A stretch of DNA of 64,000 nucleotides from Bdellovibrionota bacterium (GCA_041740355.1 JBGSMD010000064.1:1-64000); one strand, 5' to 3'; positions 4,427 through 48,536 are shown, counted from the first letter of the stretch. Translations and numbers: made by a program. The notes: a model not told the origin generated them from the sequence alone.

Positions 4427-5731
4427 ATGAAAATACTTATTATTGATTCTTCGATTGCTAACCAAGCAAAGTATGCAGAAAAGTTGCACTCCTTACATAA
4501 CAAGGATGTAGAAACTTTGGATCTACATATTATGTTGGTTGATGATAAAAAATACCAAGAACATGCTAAGATTATGGACGTGATTATCTTGGGTTCTGGC
4601 CTAGGAGAGCAAGCAAACGTGATTGCCCGGACCATCAAAGAAACTTACCCAGATAAAAATTTAATCGTATTTGTTAATAAAGATAATTATAACGGACAAA
4701 TCATTCGTCAGGCTCATAACATTGGAGTTCGTCGAGTAATGTTTGATTTAATTGACAACCTTGAATTCCTACAAGAACTTTATGCGATTGATGCTGAGTT
4801 CCGAAGAAACGGACAAATCAATCTAGGCAAGGTAATTACTGTAACTTCACCTAAAGGTGGAGCGGGAGCAACAACACTAGTTGCTGCCCTAGGTGAAATT
4901 ACTAGCAAAATGCAAGAGAAAACTTTAGTAATTGATTTGGACTTTACAACTCAAGATTTAAGTCGCTCATTGGCATTATACTCTAGTAAACCAAAAAATT
5001 ATGTTCGTTGGATGGATTCAATCGATGATTTGACCTTGAAGTCTTTTACAGAACAAACAACTAAAGTTGATGAATATGTTGACTTAATTAGCCCACCAGT
5101 TGACTTAAAAACAACACACGACCTAGGTTACCATCATGAAGGTACTCAAGTGCTGTTAAAAATAATTGACTTAGCTAGATACAATTACCAAAATATTATT
5201 ATTGATTTAGCTGAGCCAAACAGTCCAACAGGTGAAAAAATTATGGCCATCTCTGACCAGATTGCAGTTCTAACTGGTGAGTGTGCTCTTAGCTTAACTG
5301 CCTGCGAGTTGTTTATCGATAAATCAAAAGAGTACTTAAACAATTCTGATACTATTCGGATTATTAATGCTGGAGATCGTCATTCCTTAATTGACCTTCA
5401 ACAAAGCTTTAGTGGACTGAATTTAAATTCTAAGAATTGGATTGAAAATCTTCCTAATGATGCTGAGGCTTGGACTTGGCCGGGAAGTGGTAAAACATTA
5501 TTCTCAATTGGTGACTATCGAACGAAACTAGCTCTTAATAACATTGCTAGAAAGTTAGAAGTAATTAAAGAAGATGTTGTTGAACTGGAATTCCGAACAG
5601 TAAGTAAAGTTAAATTGATTAGTGCTCCATTTATTAATCGCTTTAAACAAATTCCACTTAGAGCTAAAATTGAAACTGATAGCAAAAAGTTATTACCTAA
5701 TAACTCTGGCTATAATAAAGCATCTGCCTAG
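4427..5731 (+). CDS. CpaE/TadZ-like ParA/MinD ATPase with N-terminal receiver-like domain
   Basis: Receiver-like N-terminus, then deviant Walker A SPKGGAGATT, LVIDLD and IIIDL motifs. Confidence 0.75.
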   Translation: MKILIIDSSIANQAKYAEKLHSLHNKDVETLDLHIMLVDDKKYQEHAKIMDVIILGSGLGEQANVIARTIKETYPDKNLIVFVNKDNYNGQIIRQAHNIGVRRVMFDLIDNLEFLQELYAIDAEFRRNGQINLGKVITVTSPKGGAGATTLVAALGEITSKMQEKTLVIDLDFTTQDLSRSLALYSSKPKNYVRWMDSIDDLTLKSFTEQTTKVDEYVDLISPPVDLKTTHDLGYHHEGTQVLLKIIDLARYNYQNIIIDLAEPNSPTGEKIMAISDQIAVLTGECALSLTACELFIDKSKEYLNNSDTIRIINAGDRHSLIDLQQSFSGLNLNSKNWIENLPNDAEAWTWPGSGKTLFSIGDYRTKLALNNIARKLEVIKEDVVELEFRTVSKVKLISAPFINRFKQIPLRAKIETDSKKLLPNNSGYNKASA

Positions 5732-9589: not shown

Positions 9590-10009
9590 TTATCGGAAAT
9601 CCATTTTTGGGTTTACTATAATTGTAATCTCACGTTGGTAACTTTCTATAATCTCAATCTTAATTTCTAGGTCAATTAGCTCTCGGTAGTTAGGAACTAA
9701 ATCAATCCACTCTATCACCCTCAAAGTATTTTCACTTACTGGTTCTATCAACTCTTCAGGAAGATGTTTTAATCGATAAAGATCCCAATGTTCAATCTGC
9801 AAATTATCATTATGGTAAATATTTTGCAGAGTATAAGTCGGAGAAGTAACCTCCGATTCAGGAATACCCAAGTCCATTAATAAATACTTAACTAGAGTGG
9901 TTTTACCGGCACCCAGAACTCCTATTAAGCCGATAGTTAAGGGTAACTTTGATCTTAAATCTAGTCCGCTCACTATTTTTATCAAATCGTTTGGTCTAGA
10001 AATAATCAT
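9590..10009 (-). CDS. tsaE: tRNA threonylcarbamoyladenosine biosynthesis ATPase
   Basis: GVLGAGKTT, VTSPTYTL, HWDLYRL, VIEW. Confidence 0.92.
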   Translation of the reverse strand: MIISRPNDLIKIVSGLDLRSKLPLTIGLIGVLGAGKTTLVKYLLMDLGIPESEVTSPTYTLQNIYHNDNLQIEHWDLYRLKHLPEELIEPVSENTLRVIEWIDLVPNYRELIDLEIKIEIIESYQREITIIVNPKMDFR

Positions 10010-11358
10010 TATTGAAGCTTATCAGAAAAAAATTCTTCAAACTCCTTAGAAATTGCTTCACACTCTTTTTTGGTCTTAGCTTCGACTAAGATTCTCAATT
10101 TATTTTCTGTCCCAGAATAGCGAATGAAAGCTCGCCCGTTTGATCCTAATTGCTCAGATTTCTTTTTATAAAGATCGGTATATCCTGGAAGACTATCCAA
10201 TGCCGGCTTCTCCCGAACATTCATATTCAGTAATTTTTTAGGAAATAATTCAAAATCATTAATGATTTTGGAAAGTGGTTTGCCTGAGCGTAGCACAACC
10301 TCTAACACCTTAATTGCTGCTAGAATTCCATCGCCACAGGTACAATCATCTAACATGATAATATGACCTGATTCCTCCCCACCAAGGTTATAACCTTTCT
10401 CTCGCATGGTATCTAAAACATAGCGATCACCAACATTTGTTCGGATAACTTCAATATTATTATTAGCTAAATATGGCTCAAGAGCGGAGTTTGACATGAT
10501 TGTAGAAACTAAGGTGTTATTCTTTAATAATCCTTGTTCAGAGTAATACTTAGCAAGTAATGCTAGTAGATGATCCCCGGAAAGAATAGTTCCCTTTTCA
10601 TCAATTACAACTAAACGGTCGGAATCACCATCAAAAGCAAATCCAATATCAAGATTATATTCTTGGACTAATTTACTAACAATTTCTGGATAAAGGCTAC
10701 CAAATCCAGAGTTAATATTTTTACCTGTTGGGCTTACTCCTCTTGTCACAACTTCAGCACCTAGCTCGTCAAAAACTGCTGGGGCCACTTGATAGGCCGC
10801 ACCATTTGCACAATCTAATCCAATTTTTAATCCCTTTAAACTCAGATCGCGAGAAAGAAAGTTTTTCAAAAAAACGATATAGCGCCCCTTGGCATCATCA
10901 ATTCGTTTAATTTTTCCTAAGCTATTAGGATTCACGGATTCACTAATTTTTAAGTCAGAATAAAAAAGGCTAGAAATCTCATCTTCCACTTGATCGGGTA
11001 ATTTAAAACCATCTCCAGCAAAAATCTTAATGCCATTATCCTCATAGGGGTTGTGTGAAGCTGAGACCATAATTCCAGCATCTGCTCGCATGCTCTTAGT
11101 TAAATAAGCGACTCCGGCAGTGGGAAGAGGTCCAGTCAAATAAACATTGGCTCCAGCCGAAGTTAATCCTGCAGCTAGCGAATACTCAATCATATAACCT
11201 GACAAGCGAGTATCCTTACCAATCAAAATAGTATGTCTTTCAGAATCCTTCAGAAAATAACGAGCGATTGCTTGTCCTAACTTTACAATACTGGCAGGAT
11301 CAAGAGGCGCTAGATTCGCTTTAGTTCTAATACCGTCTGTACCAAATAATTTTTCCAT
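10009..11358 (-). CDS. glmM: Phosphoglucosamine mutase
   Basis: LFGTDGIR, SASHNP, FDGDSDR, GGEESGH, RYSGTE. Confidence 0.97.
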   Translation of the reverse strand: MEKLFGTDGIRTKANLAPLDPASIVKLGQAIARYFLKDSERHTILIGKDTRLSGYMIEYSLAAGLTSAGANVYLTGPLPTAGVAYLTKSMRADAGIMVSASHNPYEDNGIKIFAGDGFKLPDQVEDEISSLFYSDLKISESVNPNSLGKIKRIDDAKGRYIVFLKNFLSRDLSLKGLKIGLDCANGAAYQVAPAVFDELGAEVVTRGVSPTGKNINSGFGSLYPEIVSKLVQEYNLDIGFAFDGDSDRLVVIDEKGTILSGDHLLALLAKYYSEQGLLKNNTLVSTIMSNSALEPYLANNNIEVIRTNVGDRYVLDTMREKGYNLGGEESGHIIMLDDCTCGDGILAAIKVLEVVLRSGKPLSKIINDFELFPKKLLNMNVREKPALDSLPGYTDLYKKKSEQLGSNGRAFIRYSGTENKLRILVEAKTKKECEAISKEFEEFFSDKLQ

Positions 11359-11369
11359 ATTAATCTTTT

Positions 11370-12266
11370 TTATTTTTTTACTGGAATCAACTTCACCTGT
11401 TCAGGCTCTATCTTTATTAATGAGATATCCTCCGGCAAGTCAACTCTAACATTGGCCATAAAATCATTACTTAACTTTTTGTTAATTTTCACATAAGGAA
11501 TTATTTCATTTTCCTTAAGTTTATTAATAGAATAACTGGGACCTGATACTTCTAAATTTATTAAATTAGTTTCCGGCTGATAATCTATTTCGCCGTCTGC
11601 TCGGAGTTCTAAGGGTAAGCCGACAAACTGTCTTTCTACTGCCAAACTAGCTAATGAAAAAGTTACTTTAACCTTATCCGTTTCTAAACTAATTGAAGAA
11701 CCGGGAGCTCTAAGTTCTAGTAAAGATTCTCCGCTTTCTTTCATCGCCCGTAAATCAATCGGCAATGTTTCCACCGTAAGTATTTGATTTACTTCTGAGG
11801 AGGGTCCTTTGACCTTCACTTTTGTTGGCTCGCTATTGATACCTAATAGTTTTATATCATTATTGACTTGCCCAATAGTAAGTACTTCAACTTTGACTTC
11901 CTTTGTAATAATATCATCTAGAATCAAATCAAGCTTTGAAGGATTGATGTTATATGCTTCTAGGCCAACTGGTAGATTTAGATTTTGACTAGTAAGCGAG
12001 ATTTGTAGCTTATTTTCAATCTCCGAGGGCAAATTAACCTCAAAAAACAAACCAGATGCTGCGGGTGAAATTTTATGTGCTGGGCCACGAAGCGTTACTT
12101 GTACCTGACGATTTACCGGCAAAAGGATAAATTTAGATTCAGGAAGGTTTTTAAATTTAACTGGTAAGGATAAAGTCAACTCCGTTTGATTGCTTTGACT
12201 ATTTACGAAAGCGTAAAGAACTAGCGTAATTATAACTGCTAAAATTTTAAGTCCTAAATTTTTCAT
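11370..12266 (-). CDS. cdaR: YbbR-domain regulator of diadenylate cyclase
   Basis: N-terminal TM helix plus three YbbR-like repeats (V.L.GP..., P.KVKVKGP); located between cdaA and glmM. Confidence 0.85.
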   Translation of the reverse strand: MKNLGLKILAVIITLVLYAFVNSQSNQTELTLSLPVKFKNLPESKFILLPVNRQVQVTLRGPAHKISPAASGLFFEVNLPSEIENKLQISLTSQNLNLPVGLEAYNINPSKLDLILDDIITKEVKVEVLTIGQVNNDIKLLGINSEPTKVKVKGPSSEVNQILTVETLPIDLRAMKESGESLLELRAPGSSISLETDKVKVTFSLASLAVERQFVGLPLELRADGEIDYQPETNLINLEVSGPSYSINKLKENEIIPYVKINKKLSNDFMANVRVDLPEDISLIKIEPEQVKLIPVKK

Positions 12267-13060
12267 TATACTTCAGTTAACTCTTTTTCTGTTTTTTCTG
12301 GTTTATTATAGTTTAAGAGAAAATCAATTTGATCTTGAAGTCCAAGTAAATCTAAATTTCGGTAGATAGTAGCTTCGTGAACGAGAGAGATACTTCCAGT
12401 TTCTTCAGAAACCACTAAGATGATTGCATCTGATCGCTCAGAAAGTCCTAGTGCTGCTCGGTGACGAGTCCCCAAGTTTGGATCTAAATCAGGATCAAAA
12501 CTTAAAGGCAATACACACCCCGCTGCTTTAATTCTTTCATTATCTATGACTACAGCGCCATCGTGTAATGGCGAGTACTTATTAAAGATACTTAGTAATA
12601 ATTTTTTATTAAAGGCGGCATCAAGTGTTACAGCTTCTTCTAAAAACTCCTCTAATCCAACTTCCTTTTGAATTACAATCAATGCGCCAGTCTTATCTTT
12701 TGCTAAGAGATCAACAGTCTTAGCAATATCCTCAATAGTTTTTTCCGAAAAGGTCTTGGAAGTACCAAAAAATATTGAGTTAATTCCCACCTTAGTTAAT
12801 CCCCTTCTTATTTCTTCCTGAAAAATCACGATTACAACTAGGATAATTGAACTTAAAAAATTCCCTAAAAGCCATTCAAGGGTGGTCAGACCAAAAGATT
12901 TTGCTAAGAAGTATAGAATAATTATCAGAGCTAATCCCGTTAGCATCTGAACTGCTCTGGTTCCCTTAATCATCTGCAACACCCGATAGATCAGGAAGCT
13001 AACGATCAGTAAGTCGAATAGCAGAATTAAGTTTTTAACACTCAAATAACTGATCATCAT
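12266..13060 (-). CDS. cdaA: Diadenylate cyclase
   Basis: Three TM helices, IFQEEIRR, SPLHDGAV, LGTRHRAA, VSEETG. Confidence 0.95.
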   Translation of the reverse strand: MMISYLSVKNLILLFDLLIVSFLIYRVLQMIKGTRAVQMLTGLALIIILYFLAKSFGLTTLEWLLGNFLSSIILVVIVIFQEEIRRGLTKVGINSIFFGTSKTFSEKTIEDIAKTVDLLAKDKTGALIVIQKEVGLEEFLEEAVTLDAAFNKKLLLSIFNKYSPLHDGAVVIDNERIKAAGCVLPLSFDPDLDPNLGTRHRAALGLSERSDAIILVVSEETGSISLVHEATIYRNLDLLGLQDQIDFLLNYNKPEKTEKELTEV

Positions 13061-16606: not shown

Positions 16607-17563
16607 TTAGCGATAACAAGCAAATTTGTTAATTAAATCGGTAAAATCCTGCGGTAAGTCCGTGGTTAAAACCTGCAGAACCCCTGTTTTTGGGTGGATA
16701 AACTGTAATTCTTTGGCATGAAGAGCTTGTCTACCAAATAGCTTACTGCTAACAGCTAAGTCTTTTGGAAGTAGACTAAAGTCACCATAGGTTTTATCTC
16801 CGATAATTGGGGACCCGATGTGATTTAAGTGCACTCTAATTTGGTGCGTCCTGCCGGTTTCTAGTCTCATTTCCAATAAATACGCGTAAGAATATTTCTG
16901 CAAAACTTTCCAGTTGGTAATTGCAGTTCTTCCATCATCTTCCACTACAGCCATTTCCAACTTATTTTGAGGACTTCTGGCAATCATCGTTTCAATTCGG
17001 CCTTCTTCGGCTTTTTGAATTTCACGATTAGAACGAGGAGTTACCAAAGCTAAAGCTTGATATACTCGCTTAACTTGACGAGTAGAAAATTGCTGCACTA
17101 AATGAGCTCGAGATTCTTCATTCTTAGCAACTAATATTAACCCAGTAGTATCTTTATCCAAACGATGCGCCAACAGAATTTTTTGATTTGGTCCTAAGTA
17201 ACTAGCTAAAGCATTTAATAATGTCTTATCTGGATTACCTGCCCCGGGATGTACCGTTAAATCAGCCGATTTGTTAACCACAATTAAATCTTGATCCTCA
17301 TATACTACAACTAGTGGGTAGTCATAGGGTACTATGTCTTTGGCCTGACCAAGCGAGCTCAAATCAATTTCCACTGAATCACTGACCTTAAGTAATACGC
17401 CCGCCTTAAAAAGTTTTTGATTATTGACGATCACTCCATACTCTTTGATTAGATTTTTTAATTGCGACCTAGTTAAAAAACTAAACTCAGGAGAATTCTG
17501 TAATTGCTGTATTAAAAAATTATCTAATCTTTGGCGATCTGTCGGGTTAGTAAACTTGTGCAT
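16607..17563 (-). CDS. rluD: RluA-family pseudouridine synthase with S4 domain (RluD-like)
   Basis: RLDNFL S4 domain, HRLDKDTTG, TGRTHQIRVH, GDKTYG, RQALHA. Confidence 0.88.
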   Translation of the reverse strand: MHKFTNPTDRQRLDNFLIQQLQNSPEFSFLTRSQLKNLIKEYGVIVNNQKLFKAGVLLKVSDSVEIDLSSLGQAKDIVPYDYPLVVVYEDQDLIVVNKSADLTVHPGAGNPDKTLLNALASYLGPNQKILLAHRLDKDTTGLILVAKNEESRAHLVQQFSTRQVKRVYQALALVTPRSNREIQKAEEGRIETMIARSPQNKLEMAVVEDDGRTAITNWKVLQKYSYAYLLEMRLETGRTHQIRVHLNHIGSPIIGDKTYGDFSLLPKDLAVSSKLFGRQALHAKELQFIHPKTGVLQVLTTDLPQDFTDLINKFACYR

Positions 17564-18078: not shown

Positions 18079-18327
18079 TTAGTTAGATTCAATCCGACTA
18101 ATAATTAATTCTAATGCAGGCAATAGCTCCTTGGGTACAGCCTGATCCACTGGTAACATTTCTAATATCTCTACAAGCTGGGGATTTGTAACAATTGGAA
18201 TATTATATTTCTTGGCTAATTTCACAACCAAAGAGACGTTTTCTTGATAGGCTTTCAAACTAAGGGCATAACTTTTACCTGAATCAATCGACGTAAGACC
18301 AACGGCATAATGCTTTTCTAAATCCAT
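18079..18327 (-). CDS. SctU/FlhB C-terminal (CC) subdomain encoded as a separate protein
   Basis: HYAVGL...LKA...AKKYNIPIVTNPQLVEIL...DQAVPKELL matches the FlhB/YscU post-cleavage pattern (T)HYAVAL...AKG...A....IP...N..LAR.L....IP..L. Confidence 0.8.
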   Translation of the reverse strand: MDLEKHYAVGLTSIDSGKSYALSLKAYQENVSLVVKLAKKYNIPIVTNPQLVEILEMLPVDQAVPKELLPALELIISRIESN

Positions 18328-18365: not shown

Positions 18366-21300
18366 CTAATCGTCTTCGTCTTCTTCCGATCGTGAAATTA
18401 CCACTTGGTCAATTAAGGTATTATTCGAAGTATTTTCGGAAAAGTTGATCAGCAGCTCTTCAAAGTCAATTACGCTTAATGGCTTATCCAAGTAATATAA
18501 ATTATCAAAAAAACGTAATGAAGCATCCCAGGTTTGGTGATTACTAGTAGTTAAGATAAACTTAATATTATTAAATCGATCTCTAATAATATTTAAGAAA
18601 TCAATAATATCCGTTCCTTGCTGATCAAGATCCATCATCAGATACTGGGGATTGAAATTAGCCTTAGCTAAGTATGTAATCATTTGCCCACGATTATTTA
18701 ACTGAAATAATTTAAAGTTTTGCTGTTCAATTATTTTCAAAATACGCTCGTCCATTTTTTCTATTCCAGAAATCATCACAAATGACTGTTTGAATTCCTC
18801 AGCCGAGCCTTCGACAGCTTTAAAGCTAATTTTATCTTTATTATAATGAGGCAAATATATACTAAAAGTGCTCCCTTGATTTAAATGACTACTAGCCACA
18901 ATTACCCCCCCGTGTCCACGAACAATGCTGTAGGAGTTCGATAGTCCTAAGCCACTTGCTGAGTAACTAACGCCACTGCCCAAGTCTCGATTTTTTGTAG
19001 TATAAAATGGCTCAAAACAATGCTTTAACTGTTCTTGATCCATACCATGTCCGTCATCTATCACATCAACTTGAAAATACTTTCCAGGAGGTAATTCTGC
19101 TGATACTTCATGACTAAAAACGCGCCGACTCGATATTCTAATCAAGATCTCACCCCCAATAGATTTCTCCATTGATTCTGCTGAATTCTTGATCAAATTA
19201 CTTAGGACGCCTAAAAGCTTTTGTTGATCGGCAAAGACTAGCGCTTGAGAAACTTCTTTCACTAAACGAATTTGTACCTGATCCTGATAATATTCTTTTT
19301 GCTTGAGAATTTCATTTTCGAATGTATCAACTAGATCGACAACATCAGAGTTCAAATTTTCAATTTCGCGTAAATAAGACATTTGCTTAATTAAATCTGC
19401 CCCTTTACTGGCGTAACTACAAATATCCTGCAATGGCTTTTTAAATGGAGAGTCGTCAGTAAATTTTGTCTCTAAGATCGAAGCCTGTCCCATAATTGCT
19501 TGCAGCAAGTTATTAAAATTATGAGCTACACCAGCCGCTAATAAGCTAACTGTTTTCATCTTATCGGAATTAGCTATCTGCAATTCAAAGCGACGAGTAA
19601 GTAAGGCGGAAGCGACCTCATTAGAAATACTGGTTAGTAAAGACATGTTAGCCAACATTCGCTCACGGCTATTAAGGTTAGGTTCAATTGCAATCAATCC
19701 AACGACTTGGCCGATACTAACAAGTGGTAAAATTAAGATACAGGTTGGTTTTAAAATATCGATGATTCGATTGATTCCCGAACACTCCGCCCGATCATTG
19801 CGGTCTAGTAACATTGGACGCTTCTCTGATAAAGCTTGATCCATGAAATCGTGTCTTAATGCCAATTCGATTTGAATTTCATTAATATTCTGGCGCATAC
19901 CAGGCCCCTTACCGTAGATCCCTTGAATATGACTACCGCTATTATTCATTACTCCAAACCAAATCCTTTTCACCGAAAATAGTTGCTCAATTACGGAACA
20001 AGAATTTTGTCCAATTTCTAAATGTGTTAACGATTTAGTGAGAGATTTACTCAACAGAAAAAGAGTATTTACGGAATCTGCTTGCTTCTTCTCCGCCAGT
20101 AGATACTCAGCATTGTAGGTTAACTTGGCAATCTGACTAGCGACGGTATCAAGTAATTCCAGATCTTCATTACTATAGTGATATGATTTCTTAGAAGCTA
20201 AAAAAAATGCCCCCACAATCGAAGGATTATTTCCAAGATCGTTCACAATTAAGGGCATAGCAATCATCGAGCCATAAATAGGAGCTAAACACTGTAGCGC
20301 GTAGTCATCTGCTTCTTTGGCAAAATCTTGGAGGACAACTCCGTACTTATTATGACAAATAATATCAACTAAGTTTCCTTCTTTTTGAAGATACTCCCAC
20401 ATATTAGCAAAGTTTGGTTCAGGTACTCCACGAATTGCAAGAAGCTCAAATTTATCTTCAACTCCCACTCCAAACCAAATACCACCTGCCTCTGAATTTG
20501 TTGCTGAAATTAATGAATCAAGTGATAAGTTAGCTATCTGCTTTGGTTCCGTAGAGTTCTGAACGCAACTAAGAATTTGATAAAGTGTATTATACCTTTT
20601 AGTTTGTGCTTCCAGTTTTAACTCATAAGTTTTCTTATCCGTAATATCTAAACCAAATCCTTCCCAACCAACAAGTTCATGATCTTCAAAAATTGGTACC
20701 GCTGAAAACATGATATAACAAGTTTGCTTAGTAGAAAAATTTTGAAAGGAGATTTCTTTTGTGAAGCTTCGTGGTTTTTTTATTAAGCGATAAAAAGCCT
20801 TCTTCAAAGCTCCATCCTGATTTTCAGAGAGGATATCTAACCAAAGATTAGGGTTTTCCTCTAATTGATGATTTTTTAACCCTAAAATTTTCTCGGTATC
20901 GCCGAGAATCTCCTTAACATTTAAATTTAAATCACTACGCAAGAAAAAAAGATTACCCTTTTCCAAAATTCGCATCGAACGAAGTTGAGAATTATTTAAA
21001 TTGCCACCACTAACAGTGATCTCCGACTGATCCTGAATAAATAGAATCGAGCGATTAAAATTCTGACTACTAGCCTCAAGTTGCAATAAATAAAGTTTCT
21101 CTTCCTCCGTAATTACATTAATTCCTTTAGCTTGTGATTCTAAAAATTGCCTTGTCCCACGAAGTACTTCACTAATTAGTGGCCAGAGTTGTTTAGCGGA
21201 ACTTGCTCCCAGTAATTGCTCAATAAAGTTATGAATGTCAGTACCAATAACATGGCTAGTCTTAAAACCAGTAATTTGCTCCAAGCCGGAGCTAATGTAA

Positions 21301-21431
21301 GCGATTTGTCCATTGCGAAGAATTTCGACAATAACTCCCCTAGTATTTGTATCTTCAAGTTCTTCAACCATTTCATCTGAAACGCCCTCGGCAACAGTTA
21401 AAAGTTGGTTTTTTATATCGTCGTTAGTCAA
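18366..21431 (-). CDS. Cytoplasmic PAS-PAS-GAF-GAF hybrid histidine kinase
   Basis: PAS-like segments (YISSGLEQITGF; GFGLDITDKK), GAF-like segments, H-box AGVAHNFNNLL, DDGHGMD, FEPFYTTK, GLGLS, degenerate receiver; TTG start 2 nt after the sctU stop. Confidence 0.88.
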   Translation of the reverse strand: MTNDDIKNQLLTVAEGVSDEMVEELEDTNTRGVIVEILRNGQIAYISSGLEQITGFKTSHVIGTDIHNFIEQLLGASSAKQLWPLISEVLRGTRQFLESQAKGINVITEEEKLYLLQLEASSQNFNRSILFIQDQSEITVSGGNLNNSQLRSMRILEKGNLFFLRSDLNLNVKEILGDTEKILGLKNHQLEENPNLWLDILSENQDGALKKAFYRLIKKPRSFTKEISFQNFSTKQTCYIMFSAVPIFEDHELVGWEGFGLDITDKKTYELKLEAQTKRYNTLYQILSCVQNSTEPKQIANLSLDSLISATNSEAGGIWFGVGVEDKFELLAIRGVPEPNFANMWEYLQKEGNLVDIICHNKYGVVLQDFAKEADDYALQCLAPIYGSMIAMPLIVNDLGNNPSIVGAFFLASKKSYHYSNEDLELLDTVASQIAKLTYNAEYLLAEKKQADSVNTLFLLSKSLTKSLTHLEIGQNSCSVIEQLFSVKRIWFGVMNNSGSHIQGIYGKGPGMRQNINEIQIELALRHDFMDQALSEKRPMLLDRNDRAECSGINRIIDILKPTCILILPLVSIGQVVGLIAIEPNLNSRERMLANMSLLTSISNEVASALLTRRFELQIANSDKMKTVSLLAAGVAHNFNNLLQAIMGQASILETKFTDDSPFKKPLQDICSYASKGADLIKQMSYLREIENLNSDVVDLVDTFENEILKQKEYYQDQVQIRLVKEVSQALVFADQQKLLGVLSNLIKNSAESMEKSIGGEILIRISSRRVFSHEVSAELPPGKYFQVDVIDDGHGMDQEQLKHCFEPFYTTKNRDLGSGVSYSASGLGLSNSYSIVRGHGGVIVASSHLNQGSTFSIYLPHYNKDKISFKAVEGSAEEFKQSFVMISGIEKMDERILKIIEQQNFKLFQLNNRGQMITYLAKANFNPQYLMMDLDQQGTDIIDFLNIIRDRFNNIKFILTTSNHQTWDASLRFFDNLYYLDKPLSVIDFEELLINFSENTSNNTLIDQVVISRSEEDEDD

Positions 21432-21433
21432 TT

Positions 21434-22171
21434 CTAAAATTTATTTATAAAAATTACTTTTGAAGATTTCACTTTAGTTTCCATGTTATCCAGTAATAAC
21501 AAGCGATATTCGGATTGTTGTCTACTAGCAGTTAATGGATCACTGCGATCATTCTTACTTTCTGCTTTCATTTCTTGATCATCCATCATTAAGGAATGGG
21601 ATAACACTGAACGACGAACCAGAAGTTCGAAACAACAAGCGATTAAAACAATTCCTGTTAGCAAACCAAATAATTCATAAAAATTATTTAAGGGATAGCT
21701 TTTAGCTTGGCTCCAAGAAATTGGTAGGTAAAATATAAATGGAATAGCCATCAAAGGTATCAGAAACAGCTTAAAAAATTCCTGTTTAAAATGTTTCAGT
21801 TTGCCCTTGAAAACACTGAGTGGATTAAACTTGTTAAATTCACACAAGTTTTCACGATGGCTAATTTGAAACCTTCGTAAAAATAAATCTGTCAAAAGCA
21901 AAGACACACAAGCTACTAGCATGGCACCAAAAAAAATTTGAGTTAATAAACAGGCTAATTGGAGGATGTTATCGATTTGATAAAGACTTAAATTGCCTAA
22001 GCTGGATTTTAACAATTTTTGAATAGTTACCCAATAGAGATTTAATCCTTCAAAAACTAGATAACAGCTTAAAAGTAATAATAAGCACCCGCGAGTTGTA
22101 AAATAATGTAAAAACTGTCCGTTGCGATTAGCTTTTTGTAGTTTTTTAAGACTAGGTGCATGTTGTTTCAT
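21434..22171 (-). CDS. SctU/FlhB export switch protein, N-terminal part (TM + CN) only
   Basis: PSLKKLQKANRNGQ start, TM segments, LMMDDQEMKAESKNDRSDP (MSKQEVKDE.K..EGDP consensus); ends KVIFINKF where VVITNPTH is expected. Confidence 0.82.
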   Translation of the reverse strand: MKQHAPSLKKLQKANRNGQFLHYFTTRGCLLLLLSCYLVFEGLNLYWVTIQKLLKSSLGNLSLYQIDNILQLACLLTQIFFGAMLVACVSLLLTDLFLRRFQISHRENLCEFNKFNPLSVFKGKLKHFKQEFFKLFLIPLMAIPFIFYLPISWSQAKSYPLNNFYELFGLLTGIVLIACCFELLVRRSVLSHSLMMDDQEMKAESKNDRSDPLTASRQQSEYRLLLLDNMETKVKSSKVIFINKF

Positions 22172-22803
22172 CAGATCATCCCGCTAGTGATAATCAGCAA
22201 AACAATCATTATAGTAAAAAAGATTTCGGTAAAAAATGAACTTTGAGGGTACAATTTACTTACAAACATAAAAAAAACCTGAATTATCAAAAAACAGATC
22301 ACAATCGGAACTAACAAATGAAATCCAATACTTAATGAAGCTAAACTTACATCCGCAATCTGTTGCGCAAGGTTCTCAACAGATACAAAATTTGAAAAAC
22401 TGTTATCTAATTGTTTAAATATCTCTAATAATAAGTTCTGTTCTAAAAAAACTATCAATAGAATCAACTTAATCCCTTGGGCTAATTGCTGACTGCTAGC
22501 AAACTCATCAGCACCAAAAAAAATGGCATAATTCATTCCACGTAAATTTTCACTTATCTCAAAGTAGATTAACAAACTCCAAAAGCTAGCTAATAAACTA
22601 AAGCTAATAGTTATTCCAATAATAAAGTTATAAAAAAATCCTAGCGATGCAATTGGTAAAGTTGTATTACAATTAAGAAAATATTGGCTAAAAATCAAAC
22701 TTAAGATTGCTCGTCCTATTAAACCTGAGGCATTTAAATTATATGGTATTAATAATAGTGATCCATAAACTCTAATATAAATTGCCCAAAATTCAGGTAA
22801 CAT
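22171..22803 (-). CDS. SctT/FliR-like export gate protein (divergent)
   Basis: Hydrophobic protein between the SctS-like and SctU-like genes; ISENLRG and SKLYPQ match the D..RG and R..PQ motifs. Confidence 0.72.
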   Translation of the reverse strand: MLPEFWAIYIRVYGSLLLIPYNLNASGLIGRAILSLIFSQYFLNCNTTLPIASLGFFYNFIIGITISFSLLASFWSLLIYFEISENLRGMNYAIFFGADEFASSQQLAQGIKLILLIVFLEQNLLLEIFKQLDNSFSNFVSVENLAQQIADVSLASLSIGFHLLVPIVICFLIIQVFFMFVSKLYPQSSFFTEIFFTIMIVLLIITSGMI

Positions 22804-23064
22804 TCAGACTCCACCAATTAGAATAACCTGCTCTAAGCATCGTTCAACGAATATGCAAAAATTTGAATTCCAAGTTGGGAAAAAAATTATAATTGTAATT
22901 CCTGCGACTACTATCTTAATCAAAAAAAGAAATGTTTGTTCTTGTAATTGAAATAGTGTCAAAATAAAATTTAAAATTAAGCTAACCGTCGCGATTAAAC
23001 CTAAGGGCCAAATCAATCCAGTGAGCAAAAGATTTAGTGCTTCGGATAAAATCTTACTTAACAT
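22804..23064 (-). CDS. SctS/FliQ-like export gate protein
   Basis: 86 aa, two TM helices, QLQEQTFLFLIKI (QIQEQTL.F..K consensus). Confidence 0.82.
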   Translation of the reverse strand: MLSKILSEALNLLLTGLIWPLGLIATVSLILNFILTLFQLQEQTFLFLIKIVVAGITIIIFFPTWNSNFCIFVERCLEQVILIGGV

Positions 23065-23709
23065 TTAAGCATAAGATAAAAACAATGACTTAAAAATTAA
23101 TTGCCAAAAATCTAGCCCAACAATTAAGAGAATTTTGAGTGGCAATGACAATAAAATTGGACTAAACATCATCATGCCTAGTCCAGCTAAGAAATTGGCA
23201 ATCAAAAAATCTATTATTAAAAATGGTAAAAGCACCATCAGGCCCATTTGGAAAGCTTCGTTAAGTTCACTTAAGATAAATGCAGTAATAATAAGAAATA
23301 ACCCATCTTCCTGCAGATTAACGCTAGGTCCATTTTCCGCTCTTAGGTTTTTAAGAAAAAGGAGTTCCTCCGCTCCAGCGTGTTTAGTGACAAACTCCTT
23401 CCAAGGTTCCATAGCAGGAGTGAATTTTTTTAAAATATCGGAAATTGTTTGCTCTTCTAATTTTCCTGCAAACAATTCATTAGAGCTAAGTAGTTTACCA
23501 GATTTATCCCAAACAGGTTCCATTACCATCAGACTAATCGCTAATGAGATTGTTCCAATAATAACTCCTGAGGGTACTTGTTGCGCACCAATGGCATTTT
23601 TAAAAAGATTTAATACAATATTAACTTTTAGATATGCAGTGCCGATCACTACCAAGAAAGGGAAAATTGCCAAACAAACTGATAATAACAAAACATTCGA
23701 ATTATTCAT
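23065..23709 (-). CDS. SctR/FliP-like export gate protein
   Basis: TAYLKVNIVL, NAIGAQQVP, AFILSELNEAFQMG, PFLIIDF, LGMMMFSP, SLPLK; probable start is the ATG at 23709, overlapping the upstream stop. Confidence 0.9.
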   Translation of the reverse strand: MNNSNVLLLSVCLAIFPFLVVIGTAYLKVNIVLNLFKNAIGAQQVPSGVIIGTISLAISLMVMEPVWDKSGKLLSSNELFAGKLEEQTISDILKKFTPAMEPWKEFVTKHAGAEELLFLKNLRAENGPSVNLQEDGLFLIITAFILSELNEAFQMGLMVLLPFLIIDFLIANFLAGLGMMMFSPILLSLPLKILLIVGLDFWQLIFKSLFLSYA

Positions 23710-24475
23710 TTTGTAAATTGAATGTTTGATAGCCGAGTCCTTTGAGTGCTGCTTGTAAATATTGTTTTTGACCAAGCCACCAATTATAATCGCTATGTAC
23801 AGCAACTCTAAGTGTTAAATTACCCTCTAGATCTAACTCTAATGCAAATGCTTGTTCTCCACGACTTTTAGATTGATAAAGAAGTTCTAGTTTCTGTTGG
23901 TTTTGATCCTGCCTAACATTAAGATATTTTGTGGGCTGTTTTCTGGAATCTTGATTATCACCTGCTGGAACAAAATGGTTATTAGAATTTATTACTAATG
24001 AATCACGAACGATGCTTGAATCTAATAAATGTTTAATTTGATCTTTGGCCAACGAGATATCTTCAACTGTTTGACTTTTCAGCTCAGCATTTTTTGGATT
24101 TAAAAAATTTTGTATTTGGGAATGCTTCGGATTGTTATTCAAAATTTCTTCGGTTGATATTTGTAGTAAGCTTATATTAGGATTTGATTGATCTTTACAA
24201 ATTACCCTGGAATTTTGAATGTTAGGAAATAAAACTCTTTGATTATTTAATTGTATTTCAGGTTGATTCCGAAATTTAGAACTGTCCCTTCTACTTATTT
24301 CCATTCTTGCTATGTCTGGCTGAACTTTCGCTGAATTAAGAAAATTTCTGATCAGTCTGCTTACTCCAGAAGGACTTGCTAATCTATAATCAACTGGTAA
24401 ATTCAAACCAAATCTGAGGCCTTCAATCATACTTGTTACTAAAGATTGTGAAGGTATTACTGGGCTATTTTTCAT
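23702..24475 (-). CDS. Hypothetical protein, possibly SctP/FliK-like length-control protein
   Basis: Low-complexity N/Q-rich body; C-terminal beta-beta-alpha pattern ending LQAALKGLGY resembles a T3S4/FliK_C domain; coupled to neighbours in the operon. Confidence 0.45.
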   Translation of the reverse strand: MKNSPVIPSQSLVTSMIEGLRFGLNLPVDYRLASPSGVSRLIRNFLNSAKVQPDIARMEISRRDSSKFRNQPEIQLNNQRVLFPNIQNSRVICKDQSNPNISLLQISTEEILNNNPKHSQIQNFLNPKNAELKSQTVEDISLAKDQIKHLLDSSIVRDSLVINSNNHFVPAGDNQDSRKQPTKYLNVRQDQNQQKLELLYQSKSRGEQAFALELDLEGNLTLRVAVHSDYNWWLGQKQYLQAALKGLGYQTFNLQNE

Positions 24476-24762
24476 TGATTAGCCTGTACTTTTCTTAAAG
24501 TTTGTAACAGACCTTCCGCCGTCTTACTTAGCATTTCAATTCGCAAATGATAATTGCTAGCTTGAATTTGATACAGAATTAAATCCTGTGAGGAAAGAGT
24601 TTGTGTCGCTATCTTTTCGAAGGAAAAGCTACGATCTAAACCTAGTTTTTCAGTGAAACTTTGAATCAGATCATAAAATTTTTCTTGATTTATTGGTGCT
24701 AAGCTTTCACTGGAGGTAATAGCGACCTCGGGCCGAGGGTTTATTTCCGTAATATTCATCAT
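24472..24762 (-). CDS. SctI (inner rod)-like protein
   Basis: 96 aa; C-terminal SSQDLILYQ....YHLRIEMLSKTAE.....LRKV resembles the EscI/YscI helix pattern. Confidence 0.55.
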   Translation of the reverse strand: MMNITEINPRPEVAITSSESLAPINQEKFYDLIQSFTEKLGLDRSFSFEKIATQTLSSQDLILYQIQASNYHLRIEMLSKTAEGLLQTLRKVQANQ

Positions 24763-24819: not shown

Positions 24820-25200
24820 TTAGTTCTTTTTTGAATTTTTACTTTCGATCATCAATGCTAAGATTGCGGCATTAAAGTCTTTTTGCTGACGGATAAAGTC
24901 TTTGAGGAAAAATTTGATAATTGGAGCAATTAGTTTTTTTAGTGAAACAATGATTGGTCCGATTATTTTACGATGAGAAGTAATTTGTTGATTTCTTAAA
25001 TCTACATCCCAAAGCTGACAAGCTGTACGAAGTTTATCTAGGAAGGGAGCTGTTATTTCGGAAGAATTTAATTTTAATTCAAAAGTTAATGCTTCTAGGT
25101 ATTTTTTTTGGTCCCAGGTGTATTCGATTTGAGAGATACGGTTTTGGATTTTGGATTCAAGCTGGAAGTTGGAATAGGTGGTATTGAGGAAGGTGGTCAT
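24820..25200 (-). CDS. Hypothetical protein
   Basis: 126-aa ORF; ITSHRKIIGPIIV.LKK...RQQKDFN pattern recalls coiled segments in polysaccharide-locus proteins. Confidence 0.6.
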   Translation of the reverse strand: MTTFLNTTYSNFQLESKIQNRISQIEYTWDQKKYLEALTFELKLNSSEITAPFLDKLRTACQLWDVDLRNQQITSHRKIIGPIIVSLKKLIAPIIKFFLKDFIRQQKDFNAAILALMIESKNSKKN

Positions 25201-25235: not shown

Positions 25236-25362
25236 ATAATTCGCTACGCGAATTAAACGCACTCAGCTTAGTAGACTCCAACAGAAAAGTGCCAATAATT
25301 CGCTACGCGAATTAAACGCACTCAGCTTAGTAGACTCCAACGGAGTCTACTAAGCTGAGTGC
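25236..25362. repeat. 47-bp direct duplication plus 21-bp perfect hairpin at the tRNA 3' end
   Basis: ataattcgctacgcgaattaaacgcactcagcttagtagactccaac at 25236-25282 and 25295-25341; stem 25318-25338 pairs with 25342-25362. Confidence 0.9.
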
Positions 25363-25443
25363 CCGAAAGAGGACTTGAACCTCCACGACCTTGCGATCAC
25401 CAGACCCTTAATCTGGCGTGTCTACCAATTCCACCATTCGGGC
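25360..25443 (-). tRNA. tRNA-Leu, anticodon AAG
   Basis: GCCCGAATGGTGGAATTGGTAGACACGCCAGA-TTAAGGG-TCTGGTGATCGCAAGGTCGTGGAGGTTCAAGTCCTCTTTCGGGCA: class II cloverleaf with long variable arm, A73 discriminator, CCA not encoded. Confidence 0.95.
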
Positions 25444-45588: not shown

Positions 45589-46803
45589 ATGAAGCAAATC
45601 CAAATAATTATCCTTTCCATACTAACCTTTCTTCCTTTCTCACTTTACGCCCTGACAACTGAAGCTTCTAAGGTAAAAACTAAAGAAGAAATAGAAACGC
45701 TAGTTAGCCCAATTGCCCTATATCCTGATATTTTACTTTCCAACATACTCCCAGCTGCAACTTTCCCCGATCAAATTGCTGATGCTGCTTTATTAATTCA
45801 CGATAAATCTGATGCCGAATTGATTGCCCAACAATCTTGGGATGATAGCGTCAAAATCATAGCTACTTATCCTGGTATTTTAAAAATGATGTATGAAAAA
45901 TTAGATTGGACAACTAATTTAGGGAATGTGTTCTTAAATCAAAGTGAACTTGTAATGAGTTCTATTCAAAAACGAAGGTCTCAAGCTAAGCAAGTTGGAA
46001 ACTTAAAAACCAATGATCAACAAATGGTAACAACGCAATATGTGGATAGTGGTAAACAAGTAATTGTAATCGAACCAAAAGATCCGCAAATCATATATGT
46101 TCAAGAATCTAGTCCAGTTGTCTATACTAGTCATGTAGAGCAAACGAGTTATGTTGCTCCTCTTGTTACATTTGGTTTAGGAGTCGCCTTAGGAGCTGCC
46201 GTAGCTAATAATAATGATAATAATAATTATTATTATCATAGTAGCCCCTGGGGTGGAAATATTTGGGTTCACAATAACTATCATAACGATTGGTATGATG
46301 CTCAACGTGACCGACAAGAATTTCACCAAGACCGTTATCAGAAAGAACAAAATTTTCGCCACGATCGGGTTAGTGAGCAACAAGACTTCCGGAATGATCA
46401 TGTTAGTGATCGACAAGACTTCCGACAAGAACAATATAATAATGGGAATAAGGACTTCTCTGCTAATCGGCAAGCACAACTATCTGAAGCCAAAAGCAAG
46501 ATGCAGAGCCAGGGCTTTAGTGGGTCAAAATTACAATCAGCAAAAAGCTCCGGAAGCTTTTCTAAGTCAAGTGCTTCTGGGAGCTATGCGAGCACACAAA
46601 GAACAGAAAGTTTTTCTAGTGCAAAAAGTCAGGCATCTAAATACCATTACACACCAACAAAATCGTCACTTAGTGATAGAAAGGCAAGCTATACCAGTCA
46701 AATTAGTACCCGTGGCTCGCAAAGTAGAAGTTTATCAACAAGCTCTAGTTTCAGTCGTGCCTCAAGCGGCTTTAGTGGCGGTGGAGGTTTTAGAAGGAGA
46801 TAA
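45589..46803 (+). CDS. DUF3300 domain exported protein with repetitive/low-complexity tail
   Basis: Signal peptide, LVSPIALYPDILL, WD.SVK, WT.NLG..F, IEP.DPQIIYV. Confidence 0.88.
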   Translation: MKQIQIIILSILTFLPFSLYALTTEASKVKTKEEIETLVSPIALYPDILLSNILPAATFPDQIADAALLIHDKSDAELIAQQSWDDSVKIIATYPGILKMMYEKLDWTTNLGNVFLNQSELVMSSIQKRRSQAKQVGNLKTNDQQMVTTQYVDSGKQVIVIEPKDPQIIYVQESSPVVYTSHVEQTSYVAPLVTFGLGVALGAAVANNNDNNNYYYHSSPWGGNIWVHNNYHNDWYDAQRDRQEFHQDRYQKEQNFRHDRVSEQQDFRNDHVSDRQDFRQEQYNNGNKDFSANRQAQLSEAKSKMQSQGFSGSKLQSAKSSGSFSKSSASGSYASTQRTESFSSAKSQASKYHYTPTKSSLSDRKASYTSQISTRGSQSRSLSTSSSFSRASSGFSGGGGFRRR

Positions 46804-46804
46804 T

Positions 46805-47683
46805 ATGAAAAATAATTTACAACTACCCTTTATCTTTTTAGTTTTCTTAATAACTAGTTGTTCAACAATAAAACCGAATACTGTTAATCTAGCAACACAA
46901 CAAGGATTTAATTCCCCTGAGATTGCTGTCCAAGAATTAGCAGCTGCCGCCAAGAGTTTAGACCAAGAAGGCCTAACAAGGATTTTTGGTCCAAATTTTG
47001 TGGCCGAAGTTTCTTCCGGAGATCCGGCACAGGATAAAAATTCACTGAATAATTTTGCTAATAAAATAGCGGAAAAGACAGATTTGTTAGCTAATAATAA
47101 ACAAACCTTTTTAATGCAAATTGGTACAGACAATTTTATATTTCCTGTGCCACTTATTAAAATCAAAGATCTTTGGTACTTTGATGGCGAGGCAGGAAGA
47201 GAAGAAATCTTAAATCGTCGTATTGGTCATAATGAAATTAGTGCTATTAAAGTATTAACTTTCTTTAGTTCAGCACAGGCTGTCTATGCTTCCAAAGATC
47301 GCGATGCTGACGGACAGCTGGAATATGCTGAAAGATTTCTAAGTACTCCCGGTGAACAAGATGGACTATACTGGGACTATGCAACTTTCGGCGAACCCAG
47401 TCCCTTGGGACCACAAGCAGCAAGGCTAATTAAGGAAGAAGGTGCAGATGGAATTTACCAAGGATATAATTATCAAATTATATCTGTTCCAAATAGTGAT
47501 AACTCCAAAAACAATGTGACTCTCCTGGCCTATCCCCTGCGATATGGCATTTCTGGAGTAATGAGTTTCGTTGCAGGACAAGATAGTAAAATATACGAAC
47601 AAAATATTAACCCAGAAAAAGCACCTGGTAAAACTTTTGATCCATTTCACTTAGATAGCGAATGGAAAGCTGTGATAAAATAA
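46805..47683 (+). CDS. DUF2950 family lipoprotein
   Basis: Start at ATG 46805 (MKNNLQ...ITSC lipobox); F.SPE.A, FPVPL, WYFD...G.EEI..RRIG.NE, DGLYW, SPLGP, AYP..YG.SGVMSF. Confidence 0.85.
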   Translation: MKNNLQLPFIFLVFLITSCSTIKPNTVNLATQQGFNSPEIAVQELAAAAKSLDQEGLTRIFGPNFVAEVSSGDPAQDKNSLNNFANKIAEKTDLLANNKQTFLMQIGTDNFIFPVPLIKIKDLWYFDGEAGREEILNRRIGHNEISAIKVLTFFSSAQAVYASKDRDADGQLEYAERFLSTPGEQDGLYWDYATFGEPSPLGPQAARLIKEEGADGIYQGYNYQIISVPNSDNSKNNVTLLAYPLRYGISGVMSFVAGQDSKIYEQNINPEKAPGKTFDPFHLDSEWKAVIK

Positions 47684-47770
47684 TTTTAGAAATGAGTTCA
47701 GTTTTAATACTTAAACTTATTTTAGATATAAAATAACTTTTTATTTAACAATAAAGATAGGAGCAAATTT

Positions 47771-48460
47771 ATGAATAGATATGTAGCTGAATTATTTGGC
47801 ACATTTTGGTTGGTACTTGGAGGCTGTGGAAGTGCCGTTCTTGCAGCTGGCTTTCCCGAAGTTGGTATTGGATTGCTGGGAGTTTCTGTAGCTTTCGGTT
47901 TAACAGTTGTCACTATGGCTTTCGCTATCGGTCATATTTCTGGATGTCATCTTAACCCAGCAGTCTCAATTGGGCTCTGGGCCGGAGGAAGATTTCCAGC
48001 AAAAGATTTACTACCTTACATTATTGCTCAAGTACTTGGTGCAATTATTGCCGCTGCTGTTCTATATATTATTGCTAGTGGCCAAGCAGGCTTTGATCTA
48101 GCCGGAGGTTTTGCTTCTAATGGATTTGGAGAGCATTCTCCAGGTAAATATAGTTTACTGGCAAGCTTTGTGACTGAAGTTGTCATGACGATGGTCTTTC
48201 TTTTTGTAATTCTTGGAGCAACAGACAAACGTGCGCCTCAAGGTTTTGCACCATTGGCAATTGGACTATGTTTAACTTTAATTCACTTAGTTAGTATTCC
48301 CGTAACAAACACTTCCGTTAACCCAGCACGCAGTACTGGTGTGGCTTTATTTATGGGAGACTGGGCAATTTCTCAGCTCTGGTTATTTTGGGTTGCGCCG
48401 ATTATTGGTGGTGTTTTAGGTGCTTTAGCCTATCGCTTTATTAGTACAGAAACTAAATAA
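47771..48460 (+). CDS. aqpZ: Aquaporin Z
   Basis: [19 protein letters not shown] and TSVNPARS (two NPA motifs). Confidence 0.96.
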
Positions 48461-48486
48461 ACTAAGAATCCTTGAGATATAAAGTA

Positions 48487-48536
48487 TAGACTCGGTGACA
48501 TAAAATTTTTGCTAAAATTCAATATCACCGAGTCTA
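48487..48536. terminator. Inverted repeat downstream of aqpZ
   Basis: 12-bp arms tagactcggtga/tcaccgagtcta with a long loop. Confidence 0.45.

Follow-up and report, generated by a model that had tools for sequence, protein, structure and literature searches.

The closest known counterparts of the system described here are the 'Myxo' type III secretion system (T3SS) loci of Myxococcus and its relatives, including the needle-less system termed T3SS*. The Cystobacterineae carry a short and a long Myxo locus, both with the export gate, the ATPase and SctJ, the short locus including SctI and the long one SctD, with no secretin, SctF or translocon in either; these loci are described as vertically inherited and basal to the other non-flagellar systems (PMC3459982). 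The long locus corresponds to T3SS* of Myxococcus xanthus (mxan_2434-2464), which, according to later work, acts together with the Tad-like Kil system and has SctN and a sorting platform (PMC12075869, PMC12428579). The subject of the present analysis is an operon of export-gate genes in a stretch of 64,000 nucleotides (nt) from a Bdellovibrionota bacterium (GCA_041740355.1 JBGSMD010000064.1:1-64000), hereafter referred to as the window, in which the core feature lies at 21434-24762 on the minus strand. The operon in the window is probably the core of a non-flagellar type III export apparatus, needle-poor and without a secretin (hereafter system 1), which is inherited across a whole order of uncultured bacteria and has its other parts encoded elsewhere in the genome; the orthologues from this order are labelled Bdellovibrionota or Oligoflexia. 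A second, paralogous gate set associated with Tad genes (hereafter system 2) is present in the same genome.

Judged against these features, system 1 is like the Myxo/T3SS* systems in combining the gate with SctJ and SctI, in lacking a secretin and any recognisable tip or translocon, in the vertical maintenance of two paralogous variants within one lineage, in co-occurring with a Tad-like machine and in branching deeply outside the classical injectisome families. Its content resembles that of the short Myxo locus, a likeness drawn from described features, since the trees presented below were built without Myxococcales sequences. It differs in that the Myxo loci keep the ATPase and the long locus a full sorting platform, whereas the window's genome has neither (most of the order keeps the ATPase), and in its split sctU with an accompanying kinase gene, its dispersal over at least three loci, its weak needle-like gene and its occurrence in a different phylum. 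A preliminary description of the window, made from the sequence alone, had drawn the parallel with T3SS* and its Tad-like partner; the comparison proved apt, as the second gate set of the genome has its sctV inside a Tad operon, while the window operon itself is not linked to Tad genes.

Six tightly packed open reading frames (ORFs) on the minus strand occupy positions 21434-24762, as the preliminary description had proposed, and four of them are matched by Pfam families. They encode an SctI-like inner-rod or adaptor protein of 96 amino acids (aa) as the first gene of the operon (24472-24762), an SctP/FliK-like protein of 257 aa (23702-24475), SctR (23065-23805 with the TTG start given by the ORF finder; PF00813, E 4.7e-47), SctS (22804-23064, 86 aa; PF01313, E 3.4e-8), SctT (22171-22803, 210 aa; PF01311, E 4.1e-12) and the N-terminal part of SctU, comprising the membrane domain and linker (21434-22171, 245 aa; PF01312, E 3.5e-18), hereafter SctU(N). 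Junctions among the six genes range from a 1-nt overlap to a 2-nt gap, with an overlap of about 8 nt between sctP and sctR if the latter starts at ATG 23709; this start, which gives a protein of 214 aa and an overlap of only a few bases with the upstream gene, is likelier than the TTG at 23805. The operon reaches beyond 21434 and has two further members, also on the minus strand, a gene for a cytoplasmic hybrid histidine kinase (18366-21431, 1021 aa) and one for the C-terminal part of SctU (18079-18327, 82 aa), hereafter SctU(CC). Of 13 loci across the taxonomic order, 12 retain the full gene order sctI, sctP, sctR, sctS, sctT, sctU(N), histidine kinase, sctU(CC). The boundaries recognised earlier, tRNA-Leu (25359-25443) and an RluD-type gene (16607-17563), are both in place, the kinase and sctU(CC) genes lying between them having been overlooked. 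Among the 54 ORFs scanned in the window there are no matches to SctN, SctV, SctJ, the secretin SctC or flagellar domains, in agreement with the earlier observation.

The gate proteins are of the secretion type rather than the flagellar type in most comparisons. SctR scores 184.6 bits against the NCBIfam model NF009438 for EscR/YscR/HrcR (cut-off 179), and 164.6 bits on yscR as against 133.4 on fliP; its matches in PDB are to SpaP with 130 and 112 bits as against FliP with at most 106, and in the ESM Atlas it appears as 'SctR/SpaP-like'. SctS reaches 33.1 bits on the SctS model TIGR01403 and 16.5 on fliQ. For SctT the order is reversed (fliR 33.2 bits, SctT 19.3), both NCBIfam scores being far under their cut-offs. 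The drift of normally conserved motifs to QQVPSG and RSDP, remarked upon previously, is seen in the translations, the relatives retaining EGDP-like forms of the latter. When SctR was used to look for close relatives among genome contigs, a single relative at 68% identity emerged, together with FliP loci from three clostridial sources.

The most distinctive feature of the operon is the division of sctU. Autocleavage at NPTH is considered a central step in substrate switching; after cleavage the two SctU halves stay associated, and FlhB halves produced together are reported to complement a mutant. In the window, SctU(N) covers only positions 3-257 of the 335 in the PF01312 profile, has no NPTH motif and gave no match at E <= 0.01 in a PDB sequence search. 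The kinase start codon follows its stop by 2 nt, and the sctU(CC) ORF begins 38 nt after the kinase gene. This 82-aa ORF, corresponding to the SctU_CC/FlhB_CC switch domain, matches PF01312 at positions 260-332 (E 0.012), the flhB_rel model TIGR00789 (E 4.9e-7) and the SctU model TIGR01404 at positions 263-336 of 341 (E 1.7e-4). Its orthologue in another family of the order (L030:3396-3677) matches PF01312 at positions 262-333 with E 2.2e-16, and a tblastn search from that orthologue finds window positions 18121-18306 (E 3e-5). SctU, of which the preliminary description named the N part, is not simply truncated, since a gene of its own, 3 kb further downstream and beyond the kinase gene, encodes the C-terminal domain.

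The same arrangement recurs throughout the order. Genome-wide searches of five relatives gave in every case an N part whose match ends at PF01312 position 256 and, about 3.4 kb downstream on the same strand, a separate part running from 261 or 262 to 333; the N part is a single match from position 1 or 2 to 256 in four of them and is found in two pieces (3-103 and 184-256) in the fifth, G011. The three flagellated ones among them possess, in addition, a full-length FlhB (positions 1-335). In an alignment to the order's own FlhB, NPTH falls between the two parts, the N parts stopping immediately ahead of it and the CC parts starting immediately behind, so that the gene break lies at its position. 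With a family hidden Markov model (HMM), the gene for the CC part was detected in all 13 loci, where it follows the kinase gene in 12 and the N part immediately in the remaining one; the window's genome has exactly one copy. Scanning 124 genomes of the phylum gave a match in 120; the 55 best matches are all short ORFs of 83-189 aa, 54 of them from genomes of the order. Extra free-standing ORFs resembling the C-terminal part of FlhB (99-118 aa; G003:C1:29292-29504 and G016:C3:236833-237045) occur away from any gate locus in some relatives and are absent from the window's genome.

The kinase comprises, in order, two PAS, two GAF, a HisKA and a HATPase domain followed by a weak receiver-like tail (Pfam matches HATPase_c 9e-18, GAF_2 2e-15, PAS_9 4e-5 and HisKA 1e-3). 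An orthologue lies directly after sctU(N) in 11 of 12 relatives, and in most loci sctU(N), the kinase gene and sctU(CC) follow one another with overlapping or abutting stop and start codons. sctU is, thus, split at the autocleavage site, with a sensor-kinase gene fixed in the gap. In one family of the order (L039, G024:C18, 7017-8098) the two sctU pieces are adjacent without the kinase gene between them, which indicates that the splitting of sctU and the insertion of the kinase are separable events. A literature search found no description of a natural split of FlhB or SctU, which is weak evidence of absence.

The two genes preceding sctR were assigned through their orthologues. The family of the 96-aa protein has ten members, found at the same position in ten loci, with a conserved C-terminal helix, and five of the ten match the SctI family PF17001 (T3SS_basalb_I) with E-values of 4e-5 to 0.06, none of them reaching the Pfam cut-off; no match is obtained with the window copy, and a PDB profile search with the family returned only coiled-coil noise such as keratin and syntaxin. 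The 257-aa protein has 13 positional orthologues; in this family a variable N-terminal and middle part of coiled-coil or low-complexity character precedes a C-terminal domain that is conserved over about 80 aa and is of the substrate-specificity-switch (T3S4) type, and three of the 13 match PF02120 (FliK, Flg_hook), the best with E 0.014. In the AlphaFold model of the window protein, residues 180-256 have pLDDT values of about 70-85 and the remainder values below 50. The modelled C-terminal domain places the PscP switch domain 5cuk at the top of 48,161 chains (VIA; Z 5.6, root mean square deviation 3.3, 75 residues aligned), and Foldseek with the same model ranks 5cuk sixth (probability 0.90, E 0.4), with no match at E <= 0.001. 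The position of the two genes immediately before sctR is also that seen in the Yersinia and Shigella loci. On the basis of the family matches of the orthologues and of this position, the 96-aa gene is assigned as sctI and the 257-aa gene as sctP with moderate confidence; the identities suggested for the two products in the preliminary description hold to that extent, all of the matches concerned being weak.

The components absent from the window are in part encoded elsewhere in the genome (3.27 Mb, 74 contigs, 97% complete), which has two FliP-family, two SctU(N), two SctJ-type and two FHIPEP genes. On contig C20, genes for a FliA/SigF-like sigma factor, sctJ, a 96-aa protein, a 613-aa sctV, a chaperone-like TPR protein and a 104-aa protein are found. 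Contig C6 carries two FHA protein genes, sctJ, genes for an 81-aa and a 331-aa protein, sctR, sctS, sctT, sctU(N), an 80-aa gene, a TPR protein gene and two sigma-like genes, while contig C30 has genes for an FHA protein and a Ser/Thr kinase, cpaE, cpaB, cpaF, tadB, tadC, a 693-aa sctV and a gene for a pseudokinase of about 800 aa. The SctJ-type lipoproteins of C20 and C6 both match the SctJ lipoprotein model. The characterisation of the operon as minimal, without SctV or ring genes, applies therefore to the 64-kb window and not to the genome, where sctJ and sctV are present on C20 and a second pair on C6 and C30. In view of what each locus lacks, the window operon and C20 would together form system 1, and C6 and C30 system 2, because the window has neither sctJ nor sctV, both of which C20 supplies, and C6 is short of sctV only, which C30 supplies.

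The relatives have corresponding loci. The trio of 96-aa gene, sctV and TPR gene seen on C20 is kept in nine of nine loci and sctJ in eight of the nine, and tadC is adjacent to sctV in 11 of 11 loci of the C30 type. The order has three types of FHIPEP protein, and all four loci co-occur in nearly all its genomes. Metagenomes frequently contain orthologues of the C20 SctV; the best 120 database clusters are all of 589-643 aa, and those with names go under FlhA, FHIPEP or 'type III secretion protein V' and are labelled as Oligoflexia, Bdellovibrionales, Bdellovibrionota or Deltaproteobacteria bacterium. The family of the C20 96-aa protein has no Pfam match, and its profile finds as the best PDB match a 43-residue chain, 7y6c_F, of a needle/co-chaperone entry (E 0.035); it is possibly a needle-like subunit. 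The TPR gene directly after the short sctV (L019:9132-9677 on C20; likewise in nine of nine relatives) has the same position in the T3SS locus of Mesorhizobium huakuii (L079:10942-11472). A 307-aa protein on contig C53 (3325-4248, minus strand), with an N-terminal FHA domain, a single membrane helix at the C-terminus and no periplasmic domain, corresponds (114 bits) to the SctD-like FHA protein whose gene comes after sctU(CC) in relatives; its own gene has been relocated beside genes resembling lipopolysaccharide heptosyltransferases.

Systems 1 and 2 share paralogous SctR, SctS, SctT, SctU(N), SctJ and SctV within the same genome and order. Unlike the Tad-linked system 2, the window operon does not lie beside Tad genes and includes SctI, SctP, the sctU(CC) gene and the kinase, whereas FHA proteins and the 331-aa protein, which has no Pfam match, belong to system 2. 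No SctU(CC) was found for system 2, the 80-aa gene after its sctU(N) being recognised neither by the SctU(CC) HMM nor by Pfam. The 81-aa protein encoded on C6 between sctJ and the 331-aa gene (L017:9396-9641) has a mean column identity of 54% over seven genomes and no family match.

Searches for the remaining components in the window's genome were negative. The T3SS ATPase model TIGR02546 gives at most 245 bits, its best matches being alpha and beta subunits encoded in two ATP synthase operons, one N-type and one F-type; SctN, SctL, an SctQ-like protein and a small gene of the C20 locus were not found by tblastn or by HMMs made from relatives; PF01052 (FliMN_C), PF00669 (flagellin), PF00460 (rod) and PF02108 (FliH) gave no match at E <= 0.1; and the only two PF00263 secretins are GspD in a type II secretion operon and a PilQ-type protein, neither of them SctC. 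Just past the window, at 65-72 kb of contig C64 (L022:1059-8203), is a full N-type ATP synthase operon (AtpR, 'gene 1', a, c, b/delta, alpha, gamma, beta, epsilon), and an ordinary F1Fo operon is present on C26; the N-type alpha and beta subunits are the best 'SctN-like' matches of the genome.

The distribution across the order places these absences in context. Among 41 genomes of the order, T3SS-type ATPases number two in 33, one in five and none in three, so that 38 of the 41 carry at least one. Genomes with two have one ATPase of FliI grade (529-569 bits) and a weaker one (275-465 bits), the latter encoded in a free-standing sctL-sctN pair in four of the four loci scanned. The three genomes without an ATPase are the window's genome, that of its congener and one that is 62% complete. 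An SctQ-like gene lies between sctJ and the 96-aa gene in six relatives (PF01052 E 5.6e-7 in one) and is absent in the window's genus. A FliP of flagellar grade (at least 232 bits) accompanied by further, weaker matches is present in 36 of the 41 genomes, exactly three FliP matches occurring in 30; flagellar-grade FliP is absent from the window's family and one other family. The loss of the ATPase is confined within the order to the window's genus, and the 'minimal' look of the operon is a genus-specific reduction from a fuller, dispersed system, since most relatives keep the sctL-sctN pair, the SctQ-like gene and flagella. The earlier statement that the system is without an ATPase, hence, extends to the whole genome and is restricted to this genus. 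Flagellar export without FliH and FliI, driven by the proton-motive force, is said to have been observed in Salmonella fliHI mutants by Minamino and Namba and by Paul and colleagues in 2008. The gate there is of the same type, but the ATPase-less state is that of a laboratory mutant of a complete flagellum, as opposed to a natural loss in a non-flagellar system.

Phylogenetic analysis was performed with 37 SctV rows (a quick LG+G4 tree with four injectisome and six flagellar references and five FlhA of the order) and 33 SctR rows (three to four injectisome references), no Myxococcales or Chlamydiae sequences being included in either. In the SctV tree, four separate groups are resolved, namely the flagellar proteins (Shimodaira-Hasegawa-like approximate likelihood ratio support 100), the injectisome references (98), the C20 type (100) and the C30 type (100), and the branching order among the four is unsupported. 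In the SctR tree, the flagellar and injectisome references lie together on one side of a 99/99 branch with the window type outside, and the C6 type forms a 100/99 clan. The flagellar clans, which include the order's own FliP (100/99) and FlhA (100), exclude all A-, B-, C- and D-type proteins, the A type being that of the window SctR and the D type that of the C20 SctV. The C20 SctV matches YscV with 297 and SsaV with 281 bits in PDB, as against FlhA with at most 254, and hrcV outscores FlhA as a model for both SctV paralogues. Going by these sequence comparisons, the system is non-flagellar and belongs neither to the flagellar clan nor to the sampled injectisome clan, which bears out the earlier suggestion of an atypical non-flagellar T3SS; neither a clustering with ordinary flagellar proteins nor a complete canonical system elsewhere emerged from the trees and genome searches.

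Relative to classical injectisomes, system 1 has the gene order sctP-(Q)-R-S-T-U of the Yersinia and Shigella loci, its SctR, SctV and SctJ favour injectisome over flagellar models, and a TPR gene follows sctV as in Mesorhizobium. In contrast to the Ysc, Mxi-Spa and Hrp/Rhizobial systems, it lies outside the sampled clan, is devoid of SctC, of SctN, SctL, SctQ, SctK and SctO, of a gatekeeper and of a translocon, and has SctU as two genes without NPTH.

Put together, these components suggest how the apparatus might work. SctR, SctS, SctT and the membrane part of SctU, with a nonameric SctV, would constitute an inner-membrane gate under the SctJ ring. The C-terminal piece of SctU may dock on the linker of the N-terminal piece and so reassemble a 'pre-cleaved' switch, and SctI, the needle-like protein and SctP could be exported early, to form a short periplasmic rod and to gauge its length. 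Export in the window's genus would be driven by the proton-motive force alone and be limited to a few small substrates. The co-translated kinase probably couples the state of the gate to gene regulation, and the FliA/SigF-like sigma factor genes adjoining both sctJ loci would fit a secretion-coupled circuit.

Several observations weigh against a functional export apparatus of this composition. No outer-membrane conduit was identified for system 1, and the system has lost SctN, SctL and SctQ in the window's genus. The assignments of SctI, SctP and the needle-like protein all derive from sub-threshold matches and stay putative, and the structural match of the SctP-like domain to 5cuk lies within 1 Z of unrelated folds. 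The window-type SctR forms a single clan in only 52% of the bootstrap trees. The proposed pairing of the window with C20 follows from complementarity, and in one relative (L040) a C6-type gate adjoins a C20-type sctJ/sctV locus. The role suggested for the kinase is deduced from gene order, the N-terminal 160 residues of the kinase are poorly conserved and one relative has no kinase in the operon. Finally, the operon genes are 52-75% identical between the congeners, with most neighbours at 86-97% and the Tad/sctV operon at 88-99%, so that their constraint is weaker and their function may be reduced or changed.

The last of these points leads to the first alternative, namely that the operon is a decaying relic which, after the loss of flagella, SctN, SctL and SctQ, builds no working machine and in which only the kinase is kept. 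Such a reading appears unlikely. SctN, SctL, SctQ and the small C20-locus gene are gone in both congeners and present in most relatives, and amino acid identity between the congeners is 52% for SctU(N), 58% for SctT and for SctS, 60% for SctI, 68% for SctR and 75% for SctU(CC) as against 91% for the kinase, with 69% and 53% for the SctV and SctJ of C20 and 88-99% for the genes of the Tad/sctV operon. Within-genus path lengths are likewise about 0.5 for the window SctR and the C20 SctV and 0.07 for the Tad-borne SctV, and the change to RSDP, where relatives have EGDP-like forms, points in the same direction. All eight ORFs of the operon are, however, intact in both congeners, their tight junctions are kept, and SctU(CC) retains its 75% identity. 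Nonsynonymous differences per site (pN) are only 0.24-0.31 in the five gate genes measured, against synonymous differences (pS) saturated at 0.57-0.81, a saturation owing to which the pN/pS ratios, obtained from the window's genome and one congener, are only rough upper bounds. As the ATPase is missing from both congeners, its loss most simply predates their split, and the gate genes have then been kept under selection without it. The retained gate genes are under purifying selection, with a constraint weaker than that for the sister system. The preliminary description had considered that the operon might stand without other components and under relaxed selection; SctN, SctL and SctQ are indeed missing and the genes evolve faster than their neighbours, but purifying selection persists.

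A second alternative holds that the gate and the two-piece SctU serve mainly as a sensor or check-point, the kinase and the sigma factor controlling expression, with bulk secretion not being the main job. The insertion of the kinase gene into the divided sctU, seen in 12 of 13 loci and with codons that overlap or abut, its standing as the best conserved gene of the operon, the FliA/SigF-type genes beside both sctJ loci, the FHA proteins and Ser/Thr kinases around system 2 and the persistence of the system without an ATPase, a sorting platform or an outer-membrane channel are all compatible with it. Gene order is, nevertheless, the sole basis of this proposal, for which neither a cognate response regulator nor a secreted anti-sigma factor came to light; the relative with a split sctU lacking the kinase and the variable N-terminal sensor region of the kinase do not favour it either, and SctI, SctP and the needle-like gene point to a built structure. 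As a complete explanation it seems quite improbable.

A third possibility, that the SctR, SctS, SctT and SctU of the window serve the SctV of the Tad operon, or that both gate sets feed a single Tad/T3SS machine, is very improbable. The arrangement in L040, where the other gate set lies beside a C20-type locus, and the co-occurrence of the four loci in nearly all genomes of the order would agree with it; against this, the Tad/sctV operon of the C30 type runs straight into the C6-type gate cluster in two relatives of one genus (L041 and L042), the C6 set has its own sctJ and needs only sctV, whereas the window operon is without both, and evolutionary rates match the window with C20 (fast) and C6 with C30 (mostly slow). 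The notion of a remnant of flagellar export (FliP, FliQ, FliR and FlhB) left after loss of the flagellum, prompted by the lack of flagellar genes in the genome, the slightly better score of SctT on fliR and the name 'FlhA' given by public pipelines to the C20 SctV, is ruled out for practical purposes by the order-wide FliP counts and the SctV and SctR trees, as flagellated relatives carry the operon in addition to canonical fliP, flhA and flhB, the flagellar clans exclude its proteins, and its companions are of the SctI, SctP and SctJ-lipoprotein type.

The surroundings of the operon were also surveyed. Upstream, a 126-aa gene (24820-25200, minus strand), conserved and without a family match, is 86% identical to its congener copy and has orthologues within a few kb of the operon in six of 12 relatives, sometimes on the opposite strand; its membership of the operon is uncertain. 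The upstream boundary (25318-25443, minus strand) consists of the tRNA-Leu(aag) predicted by ARAGORN and a perfect 20-bp hairpin with 10 G-C pairs (25362-25318) that begins right at the 3' end of the tRNA. In consensus matching, terminator-like hairpins are found 3' of the tRNA-Leu and 3' of sctU(CC), and promoter-like sites show no excess (25 as against 30.2 in shuffles). Elsewhere in the window, a solitary gene for a CpaE/ParA-like AAA_31 ATPase (4427-5731, plus strand) encodes a protein 36% identical to CpaE of the congener's Tad/sctV operon; cdaA (diadenylate cyclase), a ybbR-like gene and glmM form an operon directly downstream of ftsH (10009-13060, minus strand), which is the usual c-di-AMP module; and an aquaporin-family (MIP) gene lies between genes for two DUF2950 proteins of 489 and 328 aa (46214-49630, plus strand).

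Two features of system 1, the split sctU with its embedded kinase and the natural absence of the ATPase, are new in that neither was found described in the collection of papers searched, which likewise yielded none on a non-flagellar T3SS in Bdellovibrio-like bacteria. A more far-reaching conjecture, unlikely as it stands, is that the gate doubles as a signalling organelle in which the halves of sctU are wired around the kinase, and that a 'bare gate' without ATPase, sorting platform or outer channel runs on the proton-motive force, its output being regulation, by way of the FliA-like sigma factors nearby, as much as export; together with its Tad-coupled paralogue it would then represent deep, undescribed branches of the T3SS. 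For the order as a whole, the favoured reading of the window as the core of an export apparatus implies a natural 'pre-cleaved' SctU, in which a gene split replaces autocleavage and a sensor kinase is placed between the halves. All near-complete genomes of the order encode proteins of this kind, and public pipelines label the C20-type SctV proteins as FlhA or generic FHIPEP. Sets of Tad-like and T3SS-like genes co-occur in the window's lineage too, outside the Myxococcales, and the range of 'intermediate' systems that bear on the origin of injectisomes from flagella, so far those of the Myxococcales, is thereby widened. Two type III gates maintained without a type III ATPase would, moreover, be a natural test of the ATPase complex as an accessory to a gate powered by the proton-motive force.

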